IMG/VR virus record: IMGVR_UViG_3300009512_000012
From: an uncultured virus (IMG/VR IMGVR_UViG_3300009512_000012)
Lineage: Duplodnaviria; Heunggongvirae; Uroviricota; Caudoviricetes
Strand: one strand, 5' to 3'
Length of the DNA: 64,000 nt
Shown: positions 8,781 to 64,000 of the stretch, piece after piece
Layout: every line of letters starts with the position of its first letter
Numbering within the stretch: position 1 is the first letter of the stretch
Program-made: the position numbers and the translations under genes
The notes under the pieces: model-generated
What the model was told of the DNA's origin: nothing
The model's input: only the letters and a program-made list of their open reading frames with translations
Databases searched by the model: none

Positions 8781-8803
8781 CTAAATAGTCCTTGTATATA
8801 ATC

Positions 8804-8811
8804 TATTTATA
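8804..8811 (-). promoter_or_regulatory. T4-type late promoter TATAAATA for gp48
   Basis: Exact TATAAATA about 25 nt upstream of the start. Confidence 0.7.
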
Positions 8812-8830
8812 TGATAACATGGAGGCTAAT

Positions 8831-9280
8831 ATGGCATATAGTGGCAGATATAATCCAAGTAACCCAAATAAGTATAAAGGTAATCCCATGAAGATTATTT
8901 ATCGTTCTTTATGGGAAAAAAGACTTATGGTTTATTGTGACAAACAAAACAGTGTAATTGAATGGGGTAGTGAAGAGATTATTATACCATATTACTCACC
9001 TATGGATGGTCAAATGCATAGGTATTTTCCTGACTTCTATATGAAAGTCAAACAAAAAAATGGTACAACTAAAAAGTTTATTGTTGAAGTTAAACCTAAA
9101 AAAGACATGAAACCACCACCTGCAAATCCAAAAAGAAGAACAAAATCGTGGTTTAGACAAGTAAAAACGTATGCAGTAAATAAAGCAAAATTCAAGTATG
9201 CTGAGAACTTTTGTAAGGATAAAGGTTTAGAATTTTTAATACTTAACGAAGACCATCTCGCTCCTAAGGCATATAAATAA
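8831..9280 (+). CDS. gp4: head completion nuclease gp4
   Basis: KYKGNP..IIYRSLWE, WGSEE, HRYFPDF, EVKP motifs; GGAGG SD. Confidence 0.92.
   Translation: MAYSGRYNPSNPNKYKGNPMKIIYRSLWEKRLMVYCDKQNSVIEWGSEEIIIPYYSPMDGQMHRYFPDFYMKVKQKNGTTKKFIVEVKPKKDMKPPPANPKRRTKSWFRQVKTYAVNKAKFKYAENFCKDKGLEFLILNEDHLAPKAYK
9272..9279 (+). promoter_or_regulatory. T4-type late promoter TATAAATA for gp2
   Basis: Exact TATAAATA 16 nt upstream of the ATG. Confidence 0.7.
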
Positions 9281-11455: not shown

Positions 11456-11746
11456 ATGGTCGAAACAAAAAAAGTAAACCTAGAGTTAGAAATTGATACA
11501 AGTACAGTTGATTCTAGTAAAAATAAGTATCAGGGTTTAATCGACCTTGCTAGAGCAGTAGATGCTTGGAGAATATTTCCAAGACTATTCTTATCTGTCT
11601 ATATTGTATTGTTATACAAGTGTGTTATTTGGTATATGAACTTGTCTGCTCCTACTATGGAACAATCGGGTTTAATAAGTATTGTTGTAGGTGCTGGAGC
11701 CGCATGGTTTGGTTTATATACTGGTACAAGTAAAGGAAAGAAATAA
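11456..11746 (+). CDS. small two-TM membrane protein
   Basis: WRIFPRLF followed by two hydrophobic helices. Confidence 0.65.
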   Translation: MVETKKVNLELEIDTSTVDSSKNKYQGLIDLARAVDAWRIFPRLFLSVYIVLLYKCVIWYMNLSAPTMEQSGLISIVVGAGAAWFGLYTGTSKGKK

Positions 11747-12171
11747 TGGCAAAATTAGGTGACCAAACAGACTTTAGTTACAGAGTAAGCAAAGTAACAA
11801 AAGTTGTTGATGGTGATACAATAGATGTTATCATTGATTTAGGATTTGATATCATGTATAAAAGTAGAGTTAGACTATTTGGTATTGATACACCAGAAAG
11901 TAGAACTAGAGATTTAGTAGAAAAGAAATATGGTTTATTATCTAAAGAGTTTTTAAAGACACAACTTAAAGAAGGTAAGATTGTTATTAAGACACATAAA
12001 GATGAAGAGACAGGTAAGTTTGGTAGAATACTAGGCGAAATCTTTGTTGATGGTGTAAATGTCAATCAATTAATGTGTGATGAAGGACATGCTGTTTTGT
12101 ATGAAGGCCAAAACAAAGCAGACATAGAAGATTTACACCTAAGAAATAGAAGTATTCATAAGGTAGACTAA
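11746..12171 (+). CDS. staphylococcal nuclease (thermonuclease)-like protein
   Basis: VVDGDTIDV, VRLFGIDTPE, KFGRILG motifs. Confidence 0.9.
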   Translation: MAKLGDQTDFSYRVSKVTKVVDGDTIDVIIDLGFDIMYKSRVRLFGIDTPESRTRDLVEKKYGLLSKEFLKTQLKEGKIVIKTHKDEETGKFGRILGEIFVDGVNVNQLMCDEGHAVLYEGQNKADIEDLHLRNRSIHKVD

Positions 12172-18157: not shown

Positions 18158-18817
18158 TTACCGTACTCTGTCGAAATCATTTCTTACATCCTTTAACATT
18201 TCAATGTACTTAGGGTCTTTATTTTTAACAAACTCTTGAACAGTACCATCCTCTGTTACAACAAGAATCACTATTTGATTGATTGGTGTACCAGTTCTTT
18301 CTTCATACATTTCAGCATATGCTGATGCTTGAATATAATAGTTCTCATTGTATTCATCGTTTCGTTCTTTTTTTGAAGTTTTAAAATCTACGATAGATAG
18401 AACACCATCGTACTCTGCGATACAATCTACTCGACCTGCAACTTTCAATGTATCTGAATATAAACCACATTCTTGAAAGTGTATATTATTAATTCTTTTT
18501 TCTAGGACAGGTTTCAATTGACCAAACAAACATGTTGCTAAGAAATTACTTTTATCATATTCTTGATTGTTTAAAAAGTCTTCACACATGTGGTGAACTT
18601 TTGTACCTCTTGCAGCTGCAGTTCTAGCAACATAGTTAGCAACTTCTTCGCCAACTCGTTTACGCCACTCAAATAGTCCTTTTTTATTTCTATTTGATAA
18701 TACAGTTGTAATAGACGGGTATTTTTCGCCCTCAGGCGTTACATAGTATCTTTTCTTATCAATCGTTTCAGTAGTAAGTTCTGGTAGTTCTTTCAAGTCC
18801 ACATGATTAAATGTCAT
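18158..18817 (-). CDS. PD-(D/E)xK exonuclease (Cas4-like, T4-type)
   Basis: YPSITTVL, RGTKVH, AGRVDCIAEYDG..SIVDFKTS, Q..AYA motifs. Confidence 0.88.
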   Translation of the reverse strand: MTFNHVDLKELPELTTETIDKKRYYVTPEGEKYPSITTVLSNRNKKGLFEWRKRVGEEVANYVARTAAARGTKVHHMCEDFLNNQEYDKSNFLATCLFGQLKPVLEKRINNIHFQECGLYSDTLKVAGRVDCIAEYDGVLSIVDFKTSKKERNDEYNENYYIQASAYAEMYEERTGTPINQIVILVVTEDGTVQEFVKNKDPKYIEMLKDVRNDFDRVR

Positions 18818-28007: not shown

Positions 28008-29870
28008 TTATGTCCTTTCAATTAATGGTTTATATATTGTTATTAGTTCTGCTTTTCCTTTTACTTTGATTTTATCTACTTCTACTGATTTAGTATTATA
28101 AAGTTGTTTCATAGTATAAGAAGAGTACAGTGTTGGCAATATCTTGCCATCTTTGTCCTTGTAGTTTCTAGTTGCTGATTCCAATCTAGCTGCAAGATTA
28201 ACTGCATCACCAATAACAGAATAGTCAAATCTAGTATCACTTCCCATATTACCAACAATACAAGTACCTGTGTTAACACCTGAACCTATATTGATTTCTG
28301 GTAACTTTTTTTCTTTAAATTCTTGTTTTAGTTTTTCTGTTTCCTCTGCACATTCAATCGCAGTCTTAACTGCCATTTCAGCATGATTAGGATTATCTAA
28401 TGGTGCATTCCAAAAGGCCATAATACAATCACCCATGTATTTGTCTATAGTTCCACCATTGTCTAAAACAATTTTACTCATACGATTTAAATAATCATTA
28501 ATAACTTCTACCAAACCTTCTGGGTCATTATTATTTTTATAGTGTTCAGAAATTGGTGTAAATCCTACTATGTCCATAAACAGAAAAGACATCTCTCTTC
28601 TTTCGCCACCAAGTTTTAATTTACTTGGGTCTTTCTGTAATATTGCAACCTGTCTAGGGTCTAAGTAAGTTTCGAATTGTTTTCTAATTTGTTGTTTTAA
28701 TTGAAACTCTAAAATAAATCGATTAAAGATACTATGTAATCCTACAAAGAGTATTGTAACTAATATCCATGTAGCATCAACTAACATCAATTTGTTTGTA
28801 AAGAAATAATATGTTCCGTACACAGCACCTGCTGAGAAACCAATCATTATTAAACCAACTAACCAATATGCCGTATATCTTGTTAATATAATAATTAATG
28901 CACCTACTAGGAATGCTGTTACTAATTCTGCAAGGAAAGATATATCAACTCTTTCTATATTTGTACCATCAACAACTGTTTGTAAAGTAGAAGCAAGAAC
29001 AACATAATCATATTGAGCACCAGTTGGTGTAGCAATTACTCCACCTAAACCTTCTGCCTTCATACCAATAACAATTGTTTTTCCTTCTAAACTAATTTCG
29101 TTTGTATCTAAATCTGCAAGAGATATTTCTGGGTAAGACTTATTCCATGTTAACCATATTCTTGCGTTTGCATCAGTATTGATTGTTGCAAACCCAGGTA
29201 CTCTCATTGCAATAATACCTGCATCCCCTGATTTGACTTGATAACTCGGGTCACCAACTGCAACTCGAATAACTTCTATTGCAATATTTGGATAAACATC
29301 GTTTCCTATCTTCATCAATAAAGGCATTCTTCTAACAACACCATCGACTTCTGGTGCTGTATTTGTTGTACCAACACCTGCGGCGTTATCACCGATTTGT
29401 GGAATTGGCCCAACCATACCTGGCCATTCAAATAACCAATCTAAGGGATTACCAATTTTAGCAACTCCTCTTGGGTATCCGTTTTGACTTGTTTGATGTG
29501 AACCTGTCTGTGCGACAACAACAAAATTACCATTAAGTGTTTGACTAAAAAATTCATCACCACCCATTCTATCTTGTTCTGAAAATAAGATAGGCATAAC
29601 AATAACACCTGCACCTTGTTGTCTTAATTTTATAATTGTATTTGCCATGACAGTTCTATCCCATGGCCATTGTCCATTTTCTTCAATTGCTTTTTCATCA
29701 ATCGTTACAATTACAATTTCATTAGATATAATTTTATCTTGAGATTGAAAGAGAAGGTCGAATGATTTTAGTCTAAGAATTTCTTTGATTTGTGGGTCTT
29801 GTAGTCCTATCCATATTAAGGTAAATAAAGTTACAAATGCAACTGTCCAATGTGTGAATATTTTTTTCAT
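28008..29870 (-). CDS. CHASE2-domain class III adenylate cyclase
   Basis: GQWPWDR, DGVVRRMPL (CHASE2); 3 TM; FMDIVGFT, DKYMGDCIMAFW, YSVIGDAVNLAARLES. Confidence 0.93.
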   Translation of the reverse strand: MKKIFTHWTVAFVTLFTLIWIGLQDPQIKEILRLKSFDLLFQSQDKIISNEIVIVTIDEKAIEENGQWPWDRTVMANTIIKLRQQGAGVIVMPILFSEQDRMGGDEFFSQTLNGNFVVVAQTGSHQTSQNGYPRGVAKIGNPLDWLFEWPGMVGPIPQIGDNAAGVGTTNTAPEVDGVVRRMPLLMKIGNDVYPNIAIEVIRVAVGDPSYQVKSGDAGIIAMRVPGFATINTDANARIWLTWNKSYPEISLADLDTNEISLEGKTIVIGMKAEGLGGVIATPTGAQYDYVVLASTLQTVVDGTNIERVDISFLAELVTAFLVGALIIILTRYTAYWLVGLIMIGFSAGAVYGTYYFFTNKLMLVDATWILVTILFVGLHSIFNRFILEFQLKQQIRKQFETYLDPRQVAILQKDPSKLKLGGERREMSFLFMDIVGFTPISEHYKNNNDPEGLVEVINDYLNRMSKIVLDNGGTIDKYMGDCIMAFWNAPLDNPNHAEMAVKTAIECAEETEKLKQEFKEKKLPEINIGSGVNTGTCIVGNMGSDTRFDYSVIGDAVNLAARLESATRNYKDKDGKILPTLYSSYTMKQLYNTKSVEVDKIKVKGKAELITIYKPLIERT

Positions 29871-30226
29871 TGATTAATTTCTAACCCACACCAAGTATGA
29901 TTACAAAATAATGTGGAGTTATATGTTTTGTCATTACCTGTTTGATAGATGTTTAAAAAACTGCCACTACCACTACCTCCACTTACTGTTACATCAACAT
30001 CATTATTGTTACCGACTTGTTGAACATCTAAACTACCACCAATCCATGAGCTACCTGAAACATCAATATCGTTATCAATACCATCTTGCAAAATATTAAC
30101 TGTGGCTGTATTACCTGTGACTGATAGTGTTAAGTCATTGGCTTCTGTGTTTTCAATTTTAAATGTGCATGAAACTAATAATGTGATTATTAATATACTA
30201 CTGATTTTGTATAATATTGATTTCAT
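29867..30226 (-). CDS. small curlin-like exported protein
   Basis: Signal peptide or lipobox (LVSC); repeats Q.G..N.(I/V)DV. Confidence 0.55.
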   Translation of the reverse strand: MKSILYKISSILIITLLVSCTFKIENTEANDLTLSVTGNTATVNILQDGIDNDIDVSGSSWIGGSLDVQQVGNNNDVDVTVSGGSGSGSFLNIYQTGNDKTYNSTLFCNHTWCGLEINQ

Positions 30227-31334
30227 TACTTCCCTCTCCTAATGTGTAATCTCGAATTTCGAAATCTTGTTGTGTAACATTTATTATATATCCATTCTCT
30301 TGGTCTAACTTTAATCTAATTATGTTTCCTGATGCATCTTCTCGTTCCCATATATAGTTTCCGTCTTCTATTATCAATAAGACACCAAACTCGTCTCTAC
30401 CTTCTTTTCTTTTGTCTTTTACTTTATCAAATTCACTTCTCATTTGCAAGGCCAATTGTTTATTTAACTCTGCCAATATGTCACCTAAAAAGTTTTGTTC
30501 TAAAAAATCAATGTCTAATCTATTAGAATATTCGTCTTCTTCAACTTCTAGTAAATCAACATCTAAATCATCAAACTTTAAAAAGTCAATATCTAGTGCG
30601 TTTCCTATCATTTTTAGATTCTTTTCGTATTGAATCTGGTCGTCTAGTTTTGGCGGTCGTCTTACAATTAACAAGTTGTTAATAAGTGATTCATCTAAAT
30701 CCAAAATCACTGGTGATAATGGTTTACTTTCAGGTGTATCAACTTGTGTTGCCTGAAATGCTTGATTCATTACAACAAACCCAGCGTCAGATTCTACACT
30801 AATTTCACCAACAAAACAATTACCACTTGTGTCGCAACTTGGTAATAATATAATTGTTGATGAACCTATCTCATCAACTGTCATTGCAAAATCTGTACCT
30901 CTAACTGATACAGTAGCAGTTGGTGTCTCTATATTTATATTCTGTGCTGAGTTCTTTGCAATTTGACCTGAGGCATATCTCACCGTTCCTAAAGTTGCCT
31001 TTAAGGATAGTTTACCTGTCTTTGCTTTTGGGTCATAGACAAATTCATCTATGATTAATTTAGAATGAGAAGTAACGTCAACTCTTGTATCGTCTAAAAA
31101 CTCAATAGCAAGTTTTCCTTTGCCTGTTTTAACTGTATCATAAGAAAAAATATCTAAGTCTTTTTCTACTGTAACCTCTGAGTTATCTTCTCTTTCGATT
31201 ACTGAATTTCCTTCTTTCAGTACTACATCACCTATACTTGATGCATAAAGCGTAGTACTGAATAAGATTAGGAAAATACCTAAAACGACTGTTTTAGTCT
31301 CTTTGAATAATATCGATATTTGCATTGTCACCAC
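30198..31334 (-). CDS. FecR-domain exported protein
   Basis: D.VKTGKG...F.DDT.V, IETPTATVSVRGTDF FecR motif. Confidence 0.85.
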   Translation of the reverse strand: MVTMQISILFKETKTVVLGIFLILFSTTLYASSIGDVVLKEGNSVIEREDNSEVTVEKDLDIFSYDTVKTGKGKLAIEFLDDTRVDVTSHSKLIIDEFVYDPKAKTGKLSLKATLGTVRYASGQIAKNSAQNINIETPTATVSVRGTDFAMTVDEIGSSTIILLPSCDTSGNCFVGEISVESDAGFVVMNQAFQATQVDTPESKPLSPVILDLDESLINNLLIVRRPPKLDDQIQYEKNLKMIGNALDIDFLKFDDLDVDLLEVEEDEYSNRLDIDFLEQNFLGDILAELNKQLALQMRSEFDKVKDKRKEGRDEFGVLLIIEDGNYIWEREDASGNIIRLKLDQENGYIINVTQQDFEIRDYTLGEGSNEINIIQNQ

Positions 31335-31980
31335 TTGTTGTTAAGTTAATCATATTATCATATACACCTGATTGTGTAATATCGACATCTGCTATCGAAC
31401 CTGTATGTGAATGAATTAATGTGTGACCTACAGAATCACCATCGCCGTCTATATCAATTAAGTAATTGTTAGTGTCGCCATTTACTGTAATAGTTAAAAT
31501 AGCACTTACACCATCAACTGTTGCCGCTATGGTATTACTATCTGAGCCTGAAGCACCTGTAATATTTACAGTTGAACCTGCGGCTGAAGATGTTTCACCT
31601 ATGTCTAGGTCTATATCATTTGATGAACCTGTCATGGTTATGTTAGCAGTTACGTTTCCACATGAACTGTTATTATTACCACTATCACAATTTAGGTCTA
31701 CATCGTTTGAGTTACCAGTCAAGTTTATAACACCTGTATAAGTGGCACCATTAATTTGATATTTGATAACATTACTATCACCGACTTGGTCAATATTCAA
31801 ACTAGTGGTAGCACCAGAAGATGCAGAAGCAGTTGTACTATTACCTATCGTGTTATTTTGTCCGTCTTGTAAAACATCAAAGGTTAATGATGCACCCGAC
31901 TGTGTTACATAAATGTCGTTTGCGTTAACCGGAATTATTAAAAACATAACAAACATGACGAAACCTATTATTTTTACCAT
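31294..31980 (-). CDS. curlin-like beta-repeat protein (CsgA/CsgB-like)
   Basis: Signal peptide then NDIYVTQSG; Asn/Ser/Gly/Thr-rich repeats (Q/T).G.SN.I. Confidence 0.65.
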   Translation of the reverse strand: MVKIIGFVMFVMFLIIPVNANDIYVTQSGASLTFDVLQDGQNNTIGNSTTASASSGATTSLNIDQVGDSNVIKYQINGATYTGVINLTGNSNDVDLNCDSGNNNSSCGNVTANITMTGSSNDIDLDIGETSSAAGSTVNITGASGSDSNTIAATVDGVSAILTITVNGDTNNYLIDIDGDGDSVGHTLIHSHTGSIADVDITQSGVYDNMINLTTSGDNANIDIIQRD

Positions 31981-32013
31981 GTCTTTCCCTCGTTTGAACT
32001 ATGTTGTTCGTTA

Positions 32014-32967
32014 TTATTTATGTATTGGATGGTTTTCATCGGTCGATTCTATGGACTTTTCGATGACTTCTACCTGTTGATTTTCCACATTATTGGTGTT
32101 TTTATCAACTTTATTTTCGTTTTCTTTTGGTATTTCTATTAATTCATTCTTAAATTTCCAAAATTCTTCTTTTTCACCATCCATTATAATATTTAAAACT
32201 GCATATTCGATTGCAGTTCGAATTGCATAATTTGTGGGTTCATTTACTGCGACACCTGTTTCAACTTCTAATGCCTTAGTTCCCATATCTAAAAACTTAA
32301 AAACATCACCACCTTCACTATGGCTTGCAATTGTTTTAGTTACATTTGTTGTAAGTAATATCTCACCAGTTTGTACTGATATAAGTCTCATGGCAACTGT
32401 TACTTGGTCAACTCTATAAGCATCATTTATACCGATACCAAAGTATCTTGCACCAAAACCACCAGAGTTAGTATTACTGTCGTATCCTACAATTCCACCT
32501 TCAACTATTAAACCTGCAAAGAGAAGTGGTTTAAGTATATTTTCTATTTCTTGTTCACCGTCATATAAATCTCTTGTTGAACGAATAAGTTGTCTTTCTT
32601 TAACAAGATTGTCTAAATTTTTTCTTTCGATGACTTGAAACCAATCACCACCAGATACACTTTTCAATGCATTAATAACAAAGACATCAGCACCTTGTGT
32701 TACTGCTGTAGATAATTGAGAAAACTTTGTACTTGGTTTTCTTTGTCCTGTCTGGTCTGTAAAATCATAAACTGCAATAGTAATTACTGGTTGATTATCT
32801 AAATCAGGTATTTCACGCAACAAGACTATTGTTGGTGTACCTTCAACATAAGGCATAGAACCTTTGTATGTTGATTTATTTCCTTGAGAAGTTTGACAAC
32901 CACTTAATAACAAGGTCAATGTAATCAACACTATCACCCCAATGTATGACTGAATATTTGATTTCAT
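32014..32967 (-). CDS. csgG: curli secretion channel CsgG lipoprotein
   Basis: LLSGC lipobox; AVYDFTDQTGQRKP, STAVTQGA, ER..LDNLVKERQLIR, EGGIVGYD. Confidence 0.93.
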   Translation of the reverse strand: MKSNIQSYIGVIVLITLTLLLSGCQTSQGNKSTYKGSMPYVEGTPTIVLLREIPDLDNQPVITIAVYDFTDQTGQRKPSTKFSQLSTAVTQGADVFVINALKSVSGGDWFQVIERKNLDNLVKERQLIRSTRDLYDGEQEIENILKPLLFAGLIVEGGIVGYDSNTNSGGFGARYFGIGINDAYRVDQVTVAMRLISVQTGEILLTTNVTKTIASHSEGGDVFKFLDMGTKALEVETGVAVNEPTNYAIRTAIEYAVLNIIMDGEKEEFWKFKNELIEIPKENENKVDKNTNNVENQQVEVIEKSIESTDENHPIHK

Positions 32968-32969
32968 CT

Positions 32970-33254
32970 TTAGTCTCTCCTTGCGTCTTCTTTACCATCT
33001 GCCCTACTTATTCTCTCTTCATCTTGTCTCAAATTCAATGCATCTGATATTTGAATATCTAATTTAATCATATCATTATTCATGTTTTTTACTCTATTGT
33101 CTAATGCCATAATAATTCCATGCATTCCTGATACTTGACCTATAACGGATTCAAGTATATATTTTAATATTAAAAATATAAAGTATCCCATAACAACTGC
33201 AGCTGCTACAGGTAATCCAAATTCAGCAAGTATAGTAAAGAATATATTGTCCAT
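32970..33254 (-). CDS. small membrane protein (paralog of 33769..34029)
   Basis: EFGLPVAAAVVMGYFIF TM, then ALDNRVKNMNNDMIKL coil. Confidence 0.7.
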   Translation of the reverse strand: MDNIFFTILAEFGLPVAAAVVMGYFIFLILKYILESVIGQVSGMHGIIMALDNRVKNMNNDMIKLDIQISDALNLRQDEERISRADGKEDARRD

Positions 33255-33262
33255 TATCTATC

Positions 33263-33760
33263 TTAAAATACAAAATCCCCTATCGGTACTGTTATAACAG
33301 TAATCGTACCATCATCAGAAGTAACAGTCAATGTTATTATATCGGAAGTTGTATCTTTAACCCAAGCAATTGTAGCACCCTCTATCTCTGAAGTACCACT
33401 AGTTGGACATGTTGTTGTACTACTATCACAACTTGTTCCAAACATATTATCTACTAATTGTTTTGATAAGTTTGCGTAGATTCTTGATTCGACATTTGCA
33501 ATAAACTTATTGACAGTTTTATTTTTTTCTGCTCTTTCTGCAGCTGAGGCTGCTGATTTTCCCTCATCTTTCATTTTTTGCCTTCTTTGTTCTTGTAATT
33601 GGTCAACAGATAGTACATGAGAAGAGTAACCATCTCCACTAAATGCAGGGTTACCAAATTCAAAATACATTTCACTTGCATAGACAGGTTTTACTGACCA
33701 TGCTATAAATACGATTATTAGGATAAAAAGACCGGGTAAATATTTTTCTTTATTGTTCAT
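33263..33760 (-). CDS. csgF: curli assembly protein CsgF-like
   Basis: Signal peptide; mature N-terminus SEMYFEFGNPAFSG; TITVITVP C-terminus; next to csgG. Confidence 0.8.
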   Translation of the reverse strand: MNNKEKYLPGLFILIIVFIAWSVKPVYASEMYFEFGNPAFSGDGYSSHVLSVDQLQEQRRQKMKDEGKSAASAAERAEKNKTVNKFIANVESRIYANLSKQLVDNMFGTSCDSSTTTCPTSGTSEIEGATIAWVKDTTSDIITLTVTSDDGTITVITVPIGDFVF

Positions 33761-58674: not shown

Positions 58675-58958
58675 TAAGTTACTAATCCACTTACAACTTC
58701 CGTATATGCTTTTGTGATGTTTGGGTTACTTGGTGTAACTAATATTACTCCACCACTACGAAAACAAACTGACTTAGGATTTTCTTCAGCAGTCATACAA
58801 ACTCCTCTTGCAAATCCCATTGTTCCTTTTTCAGTGCCTACCATCATTTTAGGACTAGTGAGATGAACACCTGTTTCATCATTCTTTTCTAGTCTTCCAA
58901 TAAATTCACCGTGTGGTGTTAACACAGTTACTAAATCACCTTTTTTAAGTTCACTCAT
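58674..58958 (-). CDS. Sm-like fold small protein
   Basis: [17 protein letters not shown]...L..P; SGLVT C-terminus. Confidence 0.6.
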
Positions 58959-59991
58959 TATTATCTCCATATAAAAATTCTTTGGCCGCAGCCTCATCTA
59001 GTTGTTTCATAATTTCATCTGTAAAGTATTTTTCTGGGTTGTCATTAATTGACTTACCGAAAACTTTACTGCCATCTGGTAACTCAAACTTTGTAGATAC
59101 TTTTTTGAATATATTATGTTTTTCTGCAAGTGCAAGTAAACCATAGTACTTATCAAGTCCTTTAGAATAAGTAAGTCTAACTTCACATTGAGAATTTTCT
59201 TTTGTTAATCTAGACTTTTGATTCTTTGCTTTGATAATATTACCAACAACTTCCGTTCCGTCTTTTTCCTTTTTCTTACTAAGATACACAATACTACTTG
59301 CGGCATATTTTAGTCCACTTCCACCACCCATTTCTTTCATAGGTACATATGAACCTACAACATCATAAGTATGATTTGTTACAACCATTGGAACTTTTGC
59401 TTTTCCTAATTTTAAAGTTAATATTCTAAATGCAGCCTTGAGAACTTGAGCTCTTGTCATATCTCTTGTTTCTTTACCTTCGGCAGTATCTTCTACTTCT
59501 TTTGTAGTTGATAACATACCTAAAGAATCAAGACACATAAACATAGGTCGTTTTACATCAACGTCTTGCTGTGTGTATCTATCAAGAACTTTAATTGCCT
59601 GATGTCTAAACTCTTGAACAGTTGCAACAGGTAAGACAACTAATCTTGATGCATCAATACCTCTATCAGTTATCATTTTCTTTGTAATTGCTGATTCAGA
59701 TTCAAAGTACACAACACCACCTTCTGGGTTTGCGTCTAAGAAATGTTTAACTATTCCCATAAGAAAATATGTTTTACCAGTAGCAGATTCACCTGCTAGT
59801 GCTGTAATTTTGTTTTGAGGAAGTCCACCATAAATTGAACCACTTAACATTCCATTTAATATATAAGACCCTGTGTCAATAAAATTATCGACATCACCAG
59901 AATCAATTCCGTCATCTGCCAAGTTAGCATATTCGTTGCCAGATGTTTTAATAATCTCTTTTAGGAAATCATTGTTAGTATCTTTACTCAT
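58951..59991 (-). CDS. uvsX: UvsX recombinase (RecA-like)
   Basis: [38 protein letters not shown]. Confidence 0.96.
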
Positions 59992-60268
59992 AGATTTTAC
60001 CCTCCTTAGTAATTTTGGTTAGTTTATTTTTTTTAATATCATACATACTATTATTTGGTATGTCTCTAGTATCAAGAACTTCTTTAATGTATTGTTTAAA
60101 AAGTTCAGCACCTTTAAATCCTTTTTCAGGTGGATAGATGTTATCTTCATTTTTCATAAAGAATAAACACATCTTTGCTACGTCTTCAAATTTAACTGCA
60201 ATACCATTAAATAACATAATGCAATCCTTTTCAGACTTTCTTCCTTTAATAAATTTAAAGTTACTCAT
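59984..60268 (-). CDS. hypothetical protein
   Basis: 94 aa; NEDNIYPP; coupled to the CmoA-like gene. Confidence 0.6.
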
Positions 60269-60975
60269 TTGACTGCAATCGCACCTAAAAAATTATGATT
60301 ACGCCAAAAGACTTGTACATTTTTAAACCCTGCACCTGTTAAGAAACTACTGATTTCAGGCCAAGTGTTTGGTTTTAACATATGTCTTAATGTTTTTTCT
60401 TTATCAAGAATATCTTTATCATCAAAGTGTTCTCTCTTATGGTCATAGTACATAAAAGTTAACATGTCTTGTAAGTTTGCATTTTCAGCATAAACTTTTT
60501 CTGCGAATACAAATGCACCACCTGGGTTAAGACTATTGTATATTTCTCGTATAAGTTTTTCTCTGTTTTTCTTTGGCATAAACTGTAAAGTAAAAATAGA
60601 TGTTATAAAGGAATAGTTTCTACTCCATGAATGGTCTCTAATATCTTTTTCTTGAAATGATACTACCGGAAAATCACTTTTACCAGTCATGGCAAAAATT
60701 TCTTTTGACCTTTTTGAAAGGTCTTCTTTAAAACCTTCTGCGTACTCGATACCTTCATAGAAAACATTTTTTTTATGTGGAAAGTTTTCTTCAATAATTC
60801 TTTTTGTAAGTTTACCAGTTGAACAACCAATGTCCATAACAAAACTGCTTTCTTCAACAAAGTATCTTGAAAATGATACAACATCATTCATTAAGTCTCT
60901 GTATCCTCTAATTGATTTATCGATATGATTATCGAATCCTTCTTCTCTATGTGCAAATGTAAAATCGTTTGTCAT
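60265..60975 (-). CDS. CmoA-like carboxy-S-adenosylmethionine synthase
   Basis: FDNHIDKSIRGY, DIGCSTG, FTLQF, L.PGGAFVFAEK, FW...NF...IA.K match the CmoA pattern. Confidence 0.8.
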   Translation of the reverse strand: MTNDFTFAHREEGFDNHIDKSIRGYRDLMNDVVSFSRYFVEESSFVMDIGCSTGKLTKRIIEENFPHKKNVFYEGIEYAEGFKEDLSKRSKEIFAMTGKSDFPVVSFQEKDIRDHSWSRNYSFITSIFTLQFMPKKNREKLIREIYNSLNPGGAFVFAEKVYAENANLQDMLTFMYYDHKREHFDDKDILDKEKTLRHMLKPNTWPEISSFLTGAGFKNVQVFWRNHNFLGAIAVK

Positions 60976-62111
60976 TATATATTCCTCAATACTTTCTCAT
61001 ACATCGATGTTGCAAGACGACCCATCATAAGACTTGGTACCATTCTACCACATCGTTCTGCCTTTTGAGCCCACTTACCTGTTAGTCTAAAATCATCTGG
61101 TAATGAAGTTACTCTTTTCAGTTCACCCAATGTAAACTTTCTGTCATCATTCCAATGACAAACTCCAGCAGTTTTTTCTGTAGCACCCATTGCAGTAATT
61201 GTAGGTGACGGCTGAAACTCTGAAGCAATCTTTAAATTAAAATGCCATCCTTTAGGATGATAGTCTGTACCAGTAATAACCTTCTCAGGATTTCTTGGCA
61301 TTAATGTACATGTTTGTTTATAGTATGCTGTGTCTTTCCACTTAGTAGTAAGCATATCAAGTTCTTCTTGGTCATATTCCAAACCATCGAATGCACCTTG
61401 TAAAGTAGTAATTGTTTTATTCTCTTGTGGAAATAATGATGATAAAGTCATAAAGTTTAATCCTACTTTATCCATAATATCATCTCTTACTGCCATAAAA
61501 AAAACTCTTCGTCTTCTTTGTGGAACACCAAACTTAGAACAGTCATGTACTTTTGCAACTACTTGATATCCAATGTCTTCAAATGTATTTAGAATTTTAT
61601 TAAAATATTGTTTTGCTTCACCAACTGTAAGACCTTCAACATTTTCTGCAATGATAGTCTTTGGCCTAATGACTTCAGCAACTCTTAAAAACTCAAAGAA
61701 TAAATCCTCAATATTAGTTACTTTTTTGCCATCTGAATAATTTTTAGTTTTACCAAAGCCATCACTATGAACAGTACCTTCTCTTGCGAGAGTACCACAC
61801 ATACTAAATGCAGAACAAGGTGGACTACCATCAAGTAATTCTAATTCACCCTCTTTTAGTTTTGTTAGTTCTAGAAAGTCTTTACCTGATAACTCTTTAA
61901 TATCGCCATCAAGTATAGGTGTGTTAGGATAATTATCTCTGTAAGTATTTCTTGCCTCTTCGACAAATTCATTGATTGCAAGTATCTTTCCACCTGCAAG
62001 TCTGTAACCTGTGGACGAACCTCCACCTCCAGCGAAAGTAGAGATTACTCTAAACTTTTCTAATGCTTCTCCAGCATAAACGTCTTTAAGTAAGTAGGGT
62101 TTGTATTTCAT
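60975..62111 (-). CDS. C5 cytosine DNA methyltransferase-family enzyme (putative carboxymethyltransferase)
   Basis: FAGGGG (motif I), GSPPCSAFS (IV), ENV (VI), PQRRRR (VIII); motif X reads CGRMVP instead of GNAVP. Confidence 0.88.
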   Translation of the reverse strand: MKYKPYLLKDVYAGEALEKFRVISTFAGGGGSSTGYRLAGGKILAINEFVEEARNTYRDNYPNTPILDGDIKELSGKDFLELTKLKEGELELLDGSPPCSAFSMCGTLAREGTVHSDGFGKTKNYSDGKKVTNIEDLFFEFLRVAEVIRPKTIIAENVEGLTVGEAKQYFNKILNTFEDIGYQVVAKVHDCSKFGVPQRRRRVFFMAVRDDIMDKVGLNFMTLSSLFPQENKTITTLQGAFDGLEYDQEELDMLTTKWKDTAYYKQTCTLMPRNPEKVITGTDYHPKGWHFNLKIASEFQPSPTITAMGATEKTAGVCHWNDDRKFTLGELKRVTSLPDDFRLTGKWAQKAERCGRMVPSLMMGRLATSMYEKVLRNI

Positions 62112-62929
62112 ATAAAACTTTCAAGTGTGCCTTTTGATTGAACTATATTAGACCAATCTCGACATACATCCATTATTCTTTTTCTATTGTATAGGTTTAT
62201 CTCTCTATTGTCAAGGAGTTTTTCAAAAATAATTGGTATATCTGCAACTAATTGTAAATTCAAGTGTTTCTTGAGTTTTAACTCATCAAACTCAGGATAA
62301 TGTTGTCTAATTAAGTGTTTTTCATAAGGTTTATTGATACCATCCCAATCAAACTGTATGAAATAATCAAACACTTCCTTATTTAAATAAGGGGCAATAA
62401 AGATTTTATCGTACTTTTTACTCAATAGTTCTAATTGTCGCACCCCAGCTGGATTATCAATTTTAAAGTAATCAGTTCTAAATTTATCAAACTTTTCTTT
62501 TGTGTGTTTGAAATGTATCATTGCCTTTTTACTTAAACCATAATGGCCATCAGCGGCAACACCAGATATAACAACTTTTTCCTTTATCTTTGGAAACATG
62601 TATAAAAATGGCCAAGTACATTCAAAGTGAACTTTCTTTTTACAATTCATTTCATAAGCCATCATTTTAAAGTCTTCAACCAAATTATCTATTGGTACTG
62701 CAACACTTGTAAATGGAATATTAAACTTTTCGCAAACCTCTTGTGCCTTTAGTGAATCATATGTAGGATTGCCTTCTATGTGAAAAGAGTAACCATGAAC
62801 GGATAGACCTAGTTTGTACGATGTAAATAAACAAGTATTACTATCAACACCACCAGAGAGCAACACAGCGATATCATTATTTTCATTTCTTTCCTTTTGT
62901 ATAATATTTTCTAATAATTTATTAATCAT
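62108..62929 (-). CDS. asparagine-synthetase-like ATP-dependent amide ligase (synthetase domain only)
   Basis: PP-loop LLSGGVDS, SGVAADGHYG, APYL, K..IR; no glutamine amidotransferase domain. Confidence 0.8.
   Translation of the reverse strand: MINKLLENIIQKERNENNDIAVLLSGGVDSNTCLFTSYKLGLSVHGYSFHIEGNPTYDSLKAQEVCEKFNIPFTSVAVPIDNLVEDFKMMAYEMNCKKKVHFECTWPFLYMFPKIKEKVVISGVAADGHYGLSKKAMIHFKHTKEKFDKFRTDYFKIDNPAGVRQLELLSKKYDKIFIAPYLNKEVFDYFIQFDWDGINKPYEKHLIRQHYPEFDELKLKKHLNLQLVADIPIIFEKLLDNREINLYNRKRIMDVCRDWSNIVQSKGTLESFI
62186..62214 (-). promoter_or_regulatory. intragenic sigma70-type promoter upstream of the MTase and CmoA-like genes
   Basis: TTGACA-N17-TACAAT. Confidence 0.65.
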
Positions 62930-63147
62930 CTTTTCCTCCTAAAGTATCTCCTCCATAATGCTGACCTTGTCATTGACACTATGGTAAATATTATTGCAAT
63001 TTGAAAATTCTCAAAAATAGTAGGATGCATATCAAACAATGGAAACACAGTTAGTTGTATTATAATGGCTAAAAAGAAACCACTACCTACATCTATTACA
63101 CTTTCAATTATATCTCTATTGCCAAACATCAAAACTCTCTTTACCAT
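62926..63147 (-). CDS. small two-TM membrane protein
   Basis: ESVIDVGSGF...QL.VFP.F...R..WRR.F. Confidence 0.65.
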   Translation of the reverse strand: MVKRVLMFGNRDIIESVIDVGSGFFLAIIIQLTVFPLFDMHPTIFENFQIAIIFTIVSMTRSALWRRYFRRKR

Positions 63148-63259
63148 GAACTATACCTTCGATATTGCATATATCAATAGGATTAATTTGTACACTTCGT
63201 AAAGAAGAAAGTTTATCAATTGCACCTGATGATTGTTCTTTCCTAATACTATTTAGCAT
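63116..63259 (-). pseudogene. internally deleted radical SAM gene remnant (47 aa)
   Basis: LRSVQINPIDICN joined to IEG...GKESFDVW; TAATG-coupled to gp43. Confidence 0.45.
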
Positions 63260-64000
63260 TACGAAAAGAAGTCCTCTAAAGAACCTGATGTACCATAAGT
63301 TCTATCAACATTCCAATGAATCTTTTCAATAATAAAGTTTAATGGTTCAATAAATGATTTTTCAAACTGCAATTCATAATCAACTTTAAAGTCAAGTTGT
63401 TTAGGAAGTTTTGTAATAAACGAAATGGCTGATGATTGATATATATTTGGAAGTTTAAGGTATAAGAATTTAATTTTATCACCCTCGTTGATATAAGGAA
63501 AAATATTTCCTAAATTGTTTTTCTTAATTAAATGATTGTAAAGAATACCACCCTTAACATGTATGGGAGCACCTTTTTTAAATAACGTGTGTGTCTCTGA
63601 CCATTTACCTATACCATTTACACTTCTAGGATATGCAATCTCTTCAGGTGCAAGTGTAAGAAACTTTTTACGAAAGTCTTGTATAAATGTATTTAATTCT
63701 TTTTCATCACCAGACATCATAATCTTTAATGCCTCTTTAATCTTTGCACGACAAGGTGCTGGTGTTGATGACTTAACTGCTTCAATACCCATAATCTTTA
63801 GAGTTGGTTCTTTGTAACGTACTCCTTCAACATCCCATGCATTGAGGATATATCTTTTCTTTGCAGTCCAAATACCTTTATCAGCAATTACTTCTCGTTT
63901 CATTTGCATTTTATTTTCATATGCATGAAGATAATCAGCAAGTTCTTGATATGATTTATCAATGAAAGGTTCTATCTTTTCTTTTGCGATGGTATTTAAA
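63259..64000 (-). CDS. gp43: family B DNA polymerase gp43, C-terminal part (runs off the window)
   Basis: MKREVIADKGIWTAKKRYILN, KIMGIEAVKSSTP, GDKIKF. Confidence 0.97.
   Translation of the reverse strand, partial: LNTIAKEKIEPFIDKSYQELADYLHAYENKMQMKREVIADKGIWTAKKRYILNAWDVEGVRYKEPTLKIMGIEAVKSSTPAPCRAKIKEALKIMMSGDEKELNTFIQDFRKKFLTLAPEEIAYPRSVNGIGKWSETHTLFKKGAPIHVKGGILYNHLIKKNNLGNIFPYINEGDKIKFLYLKLPNIYQSSAISFITKLPKQLDFKVDYELQFEKSFIEPLNFIIEKIHWNVDRTYGTSGSLEDFFS

Follow-up and report, generated by a model that had tools for sequence, protein, structure and literature searches.

A predicted CmoY-CmoX-CmoA DNA hypermodification cassette in the polymerase-recombinase slot of a pelagimyophage-like virus

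Introduction

The 64,000-nucleotide stretch of DNA analysed here, referred to below as the window, comes from an uncultured virus (IMG/VR IMGVR_UViG_3300009512_000012). On its minus strand, at positions 60265-62929 (all locus coordinates are in window numbering), it carries three overlapping genes whose products resemble an amide ligase, a cytosine transferase and the carboxy-S-adenosylmethionine (Cx-SAM) synthase CmoA. The first, cmoY-like (62929..62108), would encode a stand-alone AsnB-type ATP-dependent amide ligase of 273 residues, the second, cmoX-like (62111..60975), a cytosine-C5 (carboxy)methyltransferase of 378 residues and the third, cmoA-like (60975..60265), the Cx-SAM synthase homologue of 236 residues. 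The cmoY and cmoX genes overlap by 4 nucleotides (ATGA) and cmoX and cmoA by a single nucleotide (TAATG). The open reading frame list, the read-out of the junctions and the family scans bear out the three translationally coupled genes that a first-pass annotation of the sequence had proposed. Judged by homology, the triad is very probably a DNA hypermodification module of the kind found in Synechococcus phage S-B43.

The CmoA-CmoX-CmoY system of S-B43 was published in December 2025 (Yang et al., Nat Commun 2025;17:281; PMC12783734), and the first-pass annotation was right to suspect that triads of this sort were already on record from cyanophages. SpCmoA converts S-adenosylmethionine (SAM) and prephenate to Cx-SAM with a kcat of 2.33 per s. 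SpCmoX produces 5-carboxymethylcytosine in double-stranded DNA at GC motifs, the wild type accepting only Cx-SAM, and in the crystal structure 8YF3 its Arg350, the counterpart of Asn304 in HhaI, contacts the cofactor carboxylate, while the R350N variant is inactive. SpCmoY is an asparagine-synthetase homologue without a glutaminase domain that joins glycine to the carboxyl group with ATP, and the glycine amide is present in S-B43 phage DNA. Candidates collected from IMG/VR, UniProt and MGnify in the same study number 5,615 for CmoX, 4,257 for CmoA and 2,251 for the ligase. The crystal structure, the enzymology with its key arginine and the broad occurrence of the genes in phage metagenomes are thus already in print; the predicted chemistry is not new, and the window cassette is a further example of the published system.

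From homology, conserved residues, gene coupling and a conserved genomic context, all of them observed, we infer the following pathway with its GC specificity, its amine and its biological role. CmoA would convert SAM and host prephenate to Cx-SAM. CmoX would flip a cytosine out of double-stranded phage DNA, Cys99 attacking C6 and the carboxymethyl group passing to C5 while Arg356 holds the cofactor carboxylate, and the product would be 5-carboxymethylcytosine, most likely at GpC sites, which account for 15.8% of the cytosines in the window. CmoY would then adenylate the new carboxylate and couple it to an amine, presumably taken from solution because the enzyme has no glutaminase domain. The identities of the three window proteins to their S-B43 orthologues (tblastn; 59.5% for CmoX, 54.6% for CmoA and 43.8% for CmoY) support the three-step chemistry of the first-pass annotation, in which Cx-SAM formation is followed by carboxymethylation by an arginine-bearing transferase and ATP-dependent amidation. 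Up to an amide of 5-carboxymethylcytosine we regard this pathway as highly probable. That annotation had left the last step to ammonia or an amine; homology supports the amide ligation, and the choice can be refined, since the amine in S-B43 is glycine and not ammonia. By analogy glycine would be the amine in the window virus too, for which we put the chances at about even.

The transferase

The cmoX-like product contains a complete C5-cytosine methyltransferase domain (PF00145, 2.1e-49, profile positions 1-322 of 324). It matches chain 8YF3_A of the Protein Data Bank (PDB), which is SpCmoX crystallised with Cx-SAM, over residues 5-376 at E=1e-142, and the next match in the PDB is HaeIII methylase at 4.5e-16. 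The motifs FAGGGG, SPPC, ENV, QRRRR and GRMVP are found at residues 26, 96, 156, 198 and 355 respectively, the codon of the catalytic Cys99 lying at 61817-61815. Motif X had been picked out in the first-pass annotation for an arginine in place of the usual asparagine, and this is what we find. It reads C-G-R-M-V-P, with Arg356 encoded by AGA at 61046-61044, and the segment ERCGRMVP aligns with ERVGRMVP of 8YF3. All of the Cx-SAM contacts named for SpCmoX (PMC12783734) are kept in the window protein, where F25, E47, F48, D69, the SPPC motif (S95-C98) and R350 correspond to the identical residues F26, E48, F49, D70, S96-C99 and R356. In engineered M.MpeI N374K, as cited in PMC12783734, a basic residue at the motif-X asparagine likewise lets a C5 methyltransferase use Cx-SAM, but that enzyme is engineered, has CG specificity, carries lysine rather than arginine and is not a natural phage system.

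The CmoA homologue

The cmoA-like product is assigned a class I methyltransferase fold and matches the CmoA family models TIGR00740 (1.5e-31, 110.0 bits) and PRK15451, and the PDB entry 4GEK (1e-22). The cofactor contacts described for E. coli CmoA by Byrne et al. 2013 (PMC3663124) are Y39, D62, G64, S66, D89, D117, F137 and E164, and in an alignment with CmoA of E. coli K-12 their equivalents in the window protein are Y25, D48, G50, S52, E77, D111, F132 and E159, all identical except that D89 is replaced by Glu. The window protein thus shares most of its cofactor-binding residues with the E. coli CmoA/CmoB pathway, in which CmoA makes Cx-SAM from SAM and prephenate. It differs from that pathway in that the window has no CmoB, in the replacement of the residue corresponding to R199, and in the acceptor, which would be cytosine in DNA rather than U34 in tRNA.

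The amide ligase

The cmoY-like product matches the Asn_synthase family (PF00733, 1.9e-8) over no more than the first 131 of the 354 profile positions, with weaker PP-loop matches to QueC and MnmA. Its PP-loop motif SGGVDS lies at residues 25-30 (62840-62857) and it has no glutaminase domain, so that the stand-alone asparagine-synthetase domain of the first-pass annotation is confirmed; its 273 residues compare with 271 in SpCmoY. It aligns with SpCmoY at 44% identity and E=4e-82 in a single BLASTP comparison, and at 9e-69 by tblastn against the phage collection. Of the 41 columns that are invariant among the marine ligases, 37 are identical in SpCmoY. A sequence search of the PDB returned only the repeat protein 4MKM, which is spurious, and a fold search was used instead. 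An AlphaFold2 model built from an alignment of 24 sequences has a mean predicted local distance difference test score (pLDDT) of 90.4, and in Foldseek it comes closest to the synthetase domains of beta-lactam synthetase (1MC1), human ASNS (6GQ3), E. coli AsnB (1CT9) and carbapenam synthetase. The E-values of these matches are approximately 1e-9 to 1e-10 and their query template-modelling scores (TMq) are 0.67-0.75 (0.70-0.75 for 1MC1, 6GQ3 and 1CT9, in which the matched parts are the C-terminal domains).

Profile alignment with hhalign places the ligase on residues 229-439 of AsnB with a probability of 94%. The AsnB segment S346-G-E-G-S-D-E352 lies opposite S122-G-V-A-A-D-G128 of the window protein, and of the AsnB residues E348, D351 and E352 only the Asp is kept. 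In human ASNS the acids that recognise aspartate are given as Glu-364 and Glu-368 (PMC6748925); the replacement of the aspartate-recognition acids in the window ligase is as expected for an enzyme with a different acyl substrate. We considered whether the protein could be an asparagine synthetase and rejected this, as the N-terminal Ntn (N-terminal nucleophile) glutaminase domain is missing, the score against TIGR01536 is 39.4 bits where the cut-off is 267.1, and the aspartate-recognition acids are replaced.

Points against the assignment

Several observations weigh against placing the triad in the S-B43 class. The CmoA-like protein falls below the curated NCBI cut-off for TIGR00740 (110.0 against 193.3 bits), and the column of E. 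coli R199, which is salt-bridged to the carboxymethyl carboxylate, holds a glutamate in the window (E193 in DKEKTLR, codon 60399-60397). Between the ligase and SpCmoY, identity reaches only 44%. The target-recognition region of the transferase differs from that of SpCmoX, and GC specificity in the window virus is therefore an extrapolation.

The two points on CmoA lose their force when the S-B43 enzyme is treated in the same way. The verified SpCmoA scores 115.6 bits, and the cut-off therefore excludes an active phage enzyme as well. The glutamate, followed one helical turn later by an arginine, had been entered as a caveat in the first-pass annotation and is present as described, with R197 (codon 60387-60385) four residues after E193. 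The same glutamate stands at this site in SpCmoA (E188) and throughout the 77 phage CmoAs, and the arginine four residues further on is invariant among them (R192 in SpCmoA). Since the active SpCmoA and the phage proteins all share it, the exchange of Arg199 for Glu appears harmless and we do not count it against activity; the R199 salt bridge of the E. coli enzyme does not define the phage branch of CmoA.

A different reading would make the transferase an ordinary 5-methylcytosine methylase, with the CmoA-like protein either serving the formation of uridine-5-oxyacetic acid (cmo5U) in tRNA or acting as a plain SAM-dependent methyltransferase. Besides its sub-threshold score, the CmoA-like protein does match generic methyltransferase domains, and its PHROGs family bears the label 'tRNA methyltransferase'. 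We consider this reading very improbable, because SpCmoA is equally sub-threshold, the motif-X arginine and the Cx-SAM contacts are all kept in an orthologue of an enzyme that takes no other cofactor, and CmoA adjoins CmoX in nearly all of the related loci described below. A CmoB-like user of Cx-SAM was also absent from the window (tblastn, best E=5.7).

Distribution in related viruses

A scan of IMG/VR with CmoX gave 266 confirmed relatives, of which 80 loci were kept, and ten window proteins were mapped onto 82 loci. Arginine fills the motif-X site in 83 of 83 aligned CmoX-type sequences, namely those of SpCmoX, the window and 81 loci, and a CmoA homologue adjoins CmoX in 80 of the 82 loci. 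Of the two loci without CmoA, one (L008) ends 183 nucleotides after cmoX and the other (L071) shows no match in its 1.4 kb of downstream sequence. The pattern is far beyond chance. CmoY is found in 52 of the 82 loci and has no match in the other 30, some of which are truncated. The recurrent order in IMG/VR is gp43-(cmoY)-cmoX-cmoA-uvsX-gp41. The three nearest contigs, L003-L005, share 94-100% identity with the window.

A tblastn search of the 'phages' collection (E<=1e-30) returned 11 transferase records, seven from other phages and four from Methylophilales phage Melnitz. All seven of the former have a CmoA-like gene beside the transferase, and the arginine was checked in those of S-B43, S-CRM01 and Moraxella phage Mcat8 only. 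In the one Melnitz record inspected (EXVC044M) the motif-X site is Leu, the neighbour is a Tet/JBP oxygenase and no CmoA is annotated in the 13-kb locus. The record nearest to the window, a 19-kb fragment (G001), has no match to CmoX or CmoA and is uninformative either way. Mcat8, a 40.7-kb siphophage of M. catarrhalis, has an unannotated CmoX-type transferase (L086:3441-5148) with the motif ERMGRMVAP and 42.5% identity to that of the window. It is overlapped by a distant CmoA-like gene (22% identity to the window CmoA, E=1.5e-10), and the pair lies just upstream of terminase.

The cassette of S-B43 shares with that of the window its three families, the overlap of the genes, the SPPC motif, motif-X arginine and Cx-SAM contacts of the transferase, the glutamate and arginine of CmoA and the glutaminase-free ligase. 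It differs in gene order, which is A-Y-X in S-B43 and Y-X-A in the window, and in position, as it follows a primase-helicase and a pyrophosphatase in S-B43 and stands between DNA polymerase and uvsX in the window; S-B43 is also a cultured cyanophage, whereas the window has a pelagimyophage-like background of 32-33% GC. Synechococcus phage S-CRM01 has a CmoX and a CmoA that are 58.7% and 54.2% identical to those of the window but carries them as an A-X pair without the ligase gene. Many IMG/VR contigs also have no cmoY, and their pair occupies the same polymerase-uvsX neighbourhood as the window cassette. By analogy, S-CRM01 and these contigs would be expected to stop at 5-carboxymethylcytosine.

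Which cytosine-modification cassette stands between DNA polymerase and the RecA/UvsX gene varies among related phages. In the window it is CmoY-X-A (60265-63147 for the slot). That of Melnitz (L084:4010-8090) consists of a C5 methyltransferase, 37.8% identical to the window CmoX but with Leu in place of the motif-X arginine, a Tet/JBP oxygenase, a 427-residue protein with no assigned function and a P-loop kinase. In Pelagibacter phage HTVC008M the same slot holds a 374-residue 'putative cytoplasmic protein'. The phage cassettes that pair a C5 methyltransferase with TET/JBP enzymes, as described by Burke et al. (PNAS 2021, PMC8256090), are post-replicative, with a GpC-preferring C5 transferase whose product is extended by tailoring enzymes. 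They resemble the proposed pathway in acting after replication and in using a C5 transferase to install a handle for tailoring enzymes, but that handle is a methyl group oxidised to hydroxymethyl rather than a carboxymethyl group, and no CmoA is involved.

Uneven divergence and the identity of the amine

We compared the divergence of the cassette genes in those loci whose CmoX is 89-93% identical to that of the window (L006-L026, L036, L046). CmoX stands out there as the best-conserved protein of the neighbourhood, with the least non-synonymous divergence (pN 0.044-0.071; synonymous divergence, pS, 0.44-0.51). UvsX is 79-83% identical (pN 0.12-0.16, pS 0.51-0.59), and core replication genes as a whole are 73-86% identical. 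The two cassette partners of CmoX are far more diverged, CmoA being 58-64% identical (55-62% by tblastn; pN 0.24-0.28) and CmoY 46-55% identical (45-58% by tblastn; pN 0.29-0.37). The pS of cmoX is only modestly lower than the 0.50-0.65 of uvsX, gp41 and the gp43 end; we therefore do not claim a recent transfer of cmoX and attribute most of its conservation to strong purifying selection. Two types of CmoA occur within one cluster of CmoY, for instance in L012 and L014. The pattern fits strong constraint on the transferase together with diversification or replacement of the ligase.

This divergence bears on whether the window CmoY might follow the same pathway but attach an amine other than glycine, such as another amino acid, a small amine or ammonia. 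Along with the low identity to SpCmoY, the marine ligases form nine clusters of less than 70% identity, even where the adjoining CmoX proteins are 89-93% identical, and they are 36-67% identical to each other and 44-52% to SpCmoY. Several ligase clusters have distinct pocket residues, and the use of different amines is raised for other ligase clusters (PMC12783734). In the marine ligases the conserved S-G is followed by V, L, I or W according to cluster, at the column of AsnB Glu348 (Glu-364 in the human enzyme). Set against this, SpCmoY keeps all invariant basic residues of the marine ligases except K175. The window ligase would moreover link directly to SpCmoY, within the largest ligase cluster, at the network threshold of PMC12783734, its E-value of 4e-82 lying beyond the edge of E<=1e-56, although this comparison is approximate because E-values vary with database size. 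We regard a different amine as possible but less probable than glycine; if it were so, the final base would be an amide of 5-carboxymethylcytosine that has not yet been described. A broader proposal, which we make tentatively and think rather doubtful, is that the marine T4-like group has kept its handle enzyme CmoX almost constant while the ligase was swapped or diversified and CmoA drifted too, so that lineages including that of the window attach different amines and the amide in the window virus is not that of glycine.

Locus layout and a promoter-like motif

The cassette forms part of a longer coupled gene chain. Upstream it is preceded by an open reading frame of 73 residues (63147..62926, minus) that belongs to DUF7220 (PF23858, 2.3e-18), overlaps cmoY by 4 nucleotides and is 79% identical in its DNA to a stretch of Pelagibacter phage Mosig. 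Before this stands the 3' part of the DNA polymerase gene gp43 (63999..63259, minus), which continues past the window edge and whose DNA-level match is gp43 of Synechococcus phage S-SSM7. Downstream, a frame of 94 residues (60268..59984, minus) without a Pfam, NCBIfam or PHROG match overlaps cmoA by 4 nucleotides (ATGA) and, by 8 nucleotides, the RecA-like recombinase gene uvsX (59991..58951, minus; PF00154, 8.7e-14), whose DNA-level match is the UvsX gene of cyanophage P-RSM6. The triad therefore does lie between gp43 and uvsX, as the first-pass annotation had it, but abuts neither directly; in related loci gp43 homologues abut the cassette. The DUF7220 and 94-residue frames accompany the cassette only in L003-L005, which are nearly identical to the window, and for this reason we rejected them as module parts; they probably stand outside it.

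A sigma-70-like motif, TTGACA-17-TACAAT, lies at 62214-62186 on the minus strand, inside the 3' end of cmoY and 103 nucleotides before the start of cmoX. With 11 of 12 positions matching it is the best in the 4.6 kb scanned, although the region shows no clear overall enrichment of promoter-like sites (30 found against 22.1 +/- 4.3 in shuffled sequence). An exact TTGACA-N16-18-TANNNT occurs within 200 nucleotides upstream of cmoX in 60 of the 78 loci whose sequence extends far enough upstream (37 of 52 when only distinct sequences are counted), compared with 112 of 3088 control windows on the same strand of the same loci; the first of these counts overstates independence, since the loci are interrelated. 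It occurs in divergent cmoY alleles, in intergenic DNA and, in loci that lack cmoY, in the end of gp43. In cmoY the motif coincides with the conserved peptide LLDN...LYN, but the minority codons CTT and GAC are used there, so that its conservation is only partly due to coding constraint. The early promoter placed here before the last two genes thus stands as a promoter-like motif, and its function as a promoter is predicted from the sequence.

A second promoter-like site, TTGATA-16-TATAGT at 63150-63177 (10 of 12 matching), ends 3 nucleotides before the ATG of the DUF7220 frame, too near for a normal leader. Contigs from public runs, namely two RNA libraries, a further library that is probably DNA and a DNA run, were compared with the stretch. 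Those from the RNA libraries cover it only in a few small patches, among them 60160-60466 and 60598-60835, that show neither start, strand nor transcription, and regions without cover carry no meaning.

Virus background and biological role

The window derives from a marine T4-like virus, as shown by Pfam matches to gp32, gp59, RNase H, a gp41-type helicase, baseplate proteins, ribonucleotide reductase and PhoH, and its GC content is 31-38%. The gp41-type helicase is closest to that of Melnitz (68% identity), and the virus is pelagimyophage-like rather than like S-B43. Its CsgG is 72% identical to that of HTVC008M, which hints at a SAR11 host. This gene belongs to a group at 28008-33760 that encodes a CHASE2-adenylate/guanylate cyclase (620 residues), a FecR-domain protein, CsgG and CsgF, and curli genes are described from pelagimyophages in PMC7029224.

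If the host is SAR11, an anti-restriction role for the modification becomes less obvious, because restriction systems are rare there; according to PMC7029224, more than 100 SAR11 genomes include just one that encodes a restriction-modification system. The modification could then be made as proposed but serve mainly for self/non-self marking towards phage nucleases, for packaging or for the control of transcription. The window does encode candidate nucleases (an SNase at 11746-12171, a PD-(D/E)XK protein at 18158-18817 and a TnsA-like protein at 8792-9280), and effects on RNA polymerase are raised as an open question in the Discussion of PMC12783734. However, 5-carboxymethylation blocks HhaI in vitro (PMC12783734), and the avoidance of GATC described below indicates a host with active sequence-specific attack on DNA. 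We therefore think it unlikely that the main role lies elsewhere than in restriction evasion.

The window contains no GATC sites against the 190 that a second-order Markov model predicts (z=-13.8), by far the strongest deviation of any 4-mer. The three nearest relatives L003-L005 (33 kb) and the 13-kb Melnitz locus likewise lack GATC. Counts are normal in sister contigs with a CmoX 89-93% identical to that of the window (for example 35 in 13 kb), and HTVC008M has 30 in 50 kb. The loci given with this observation are L003-L005, L049-L050, L054, L056, L060-L067, L071-L073, L075-L082 and L084. The avoidance is lineage-specific and independent of GC-directed modification, and it suggests a host nuclease directed at GATC. 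Since total avoidance of this kind points to sequence-specific attack by the host, the assignment of the host is itself uncertain. Among the top 10 of 165 literature matches, nothing relevant to GATC avoidance in marine myoviruses was found.

Conclusions

What the window adds to the published system is small: the Y-X-A order in the polymerase-recombinase slot, a conserved promoter-like motif before cmoX and a very divergent CmoY beside a conserved CmoX. It places the cassette beyond cyanophages, in pelagimyophage-like viruses of abundant marine heterotrophs, and in a slot that holds an alternative methyl/TET pathway for cytosine in the related phage Melnitz. The exchange of Arg199 for Glu is general in phage CmoA and compatible with high activity, which helps to annotate genes that curated CmoA models miss. 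As the ligase is far more variable than the transferase, the marine contigs may offer a natural panel for new amide adducts of DNA. If the lineages do attach different amines, this would be a hypermodification whose adduct varies under an arms race with adduct-reading nucleases of the host.

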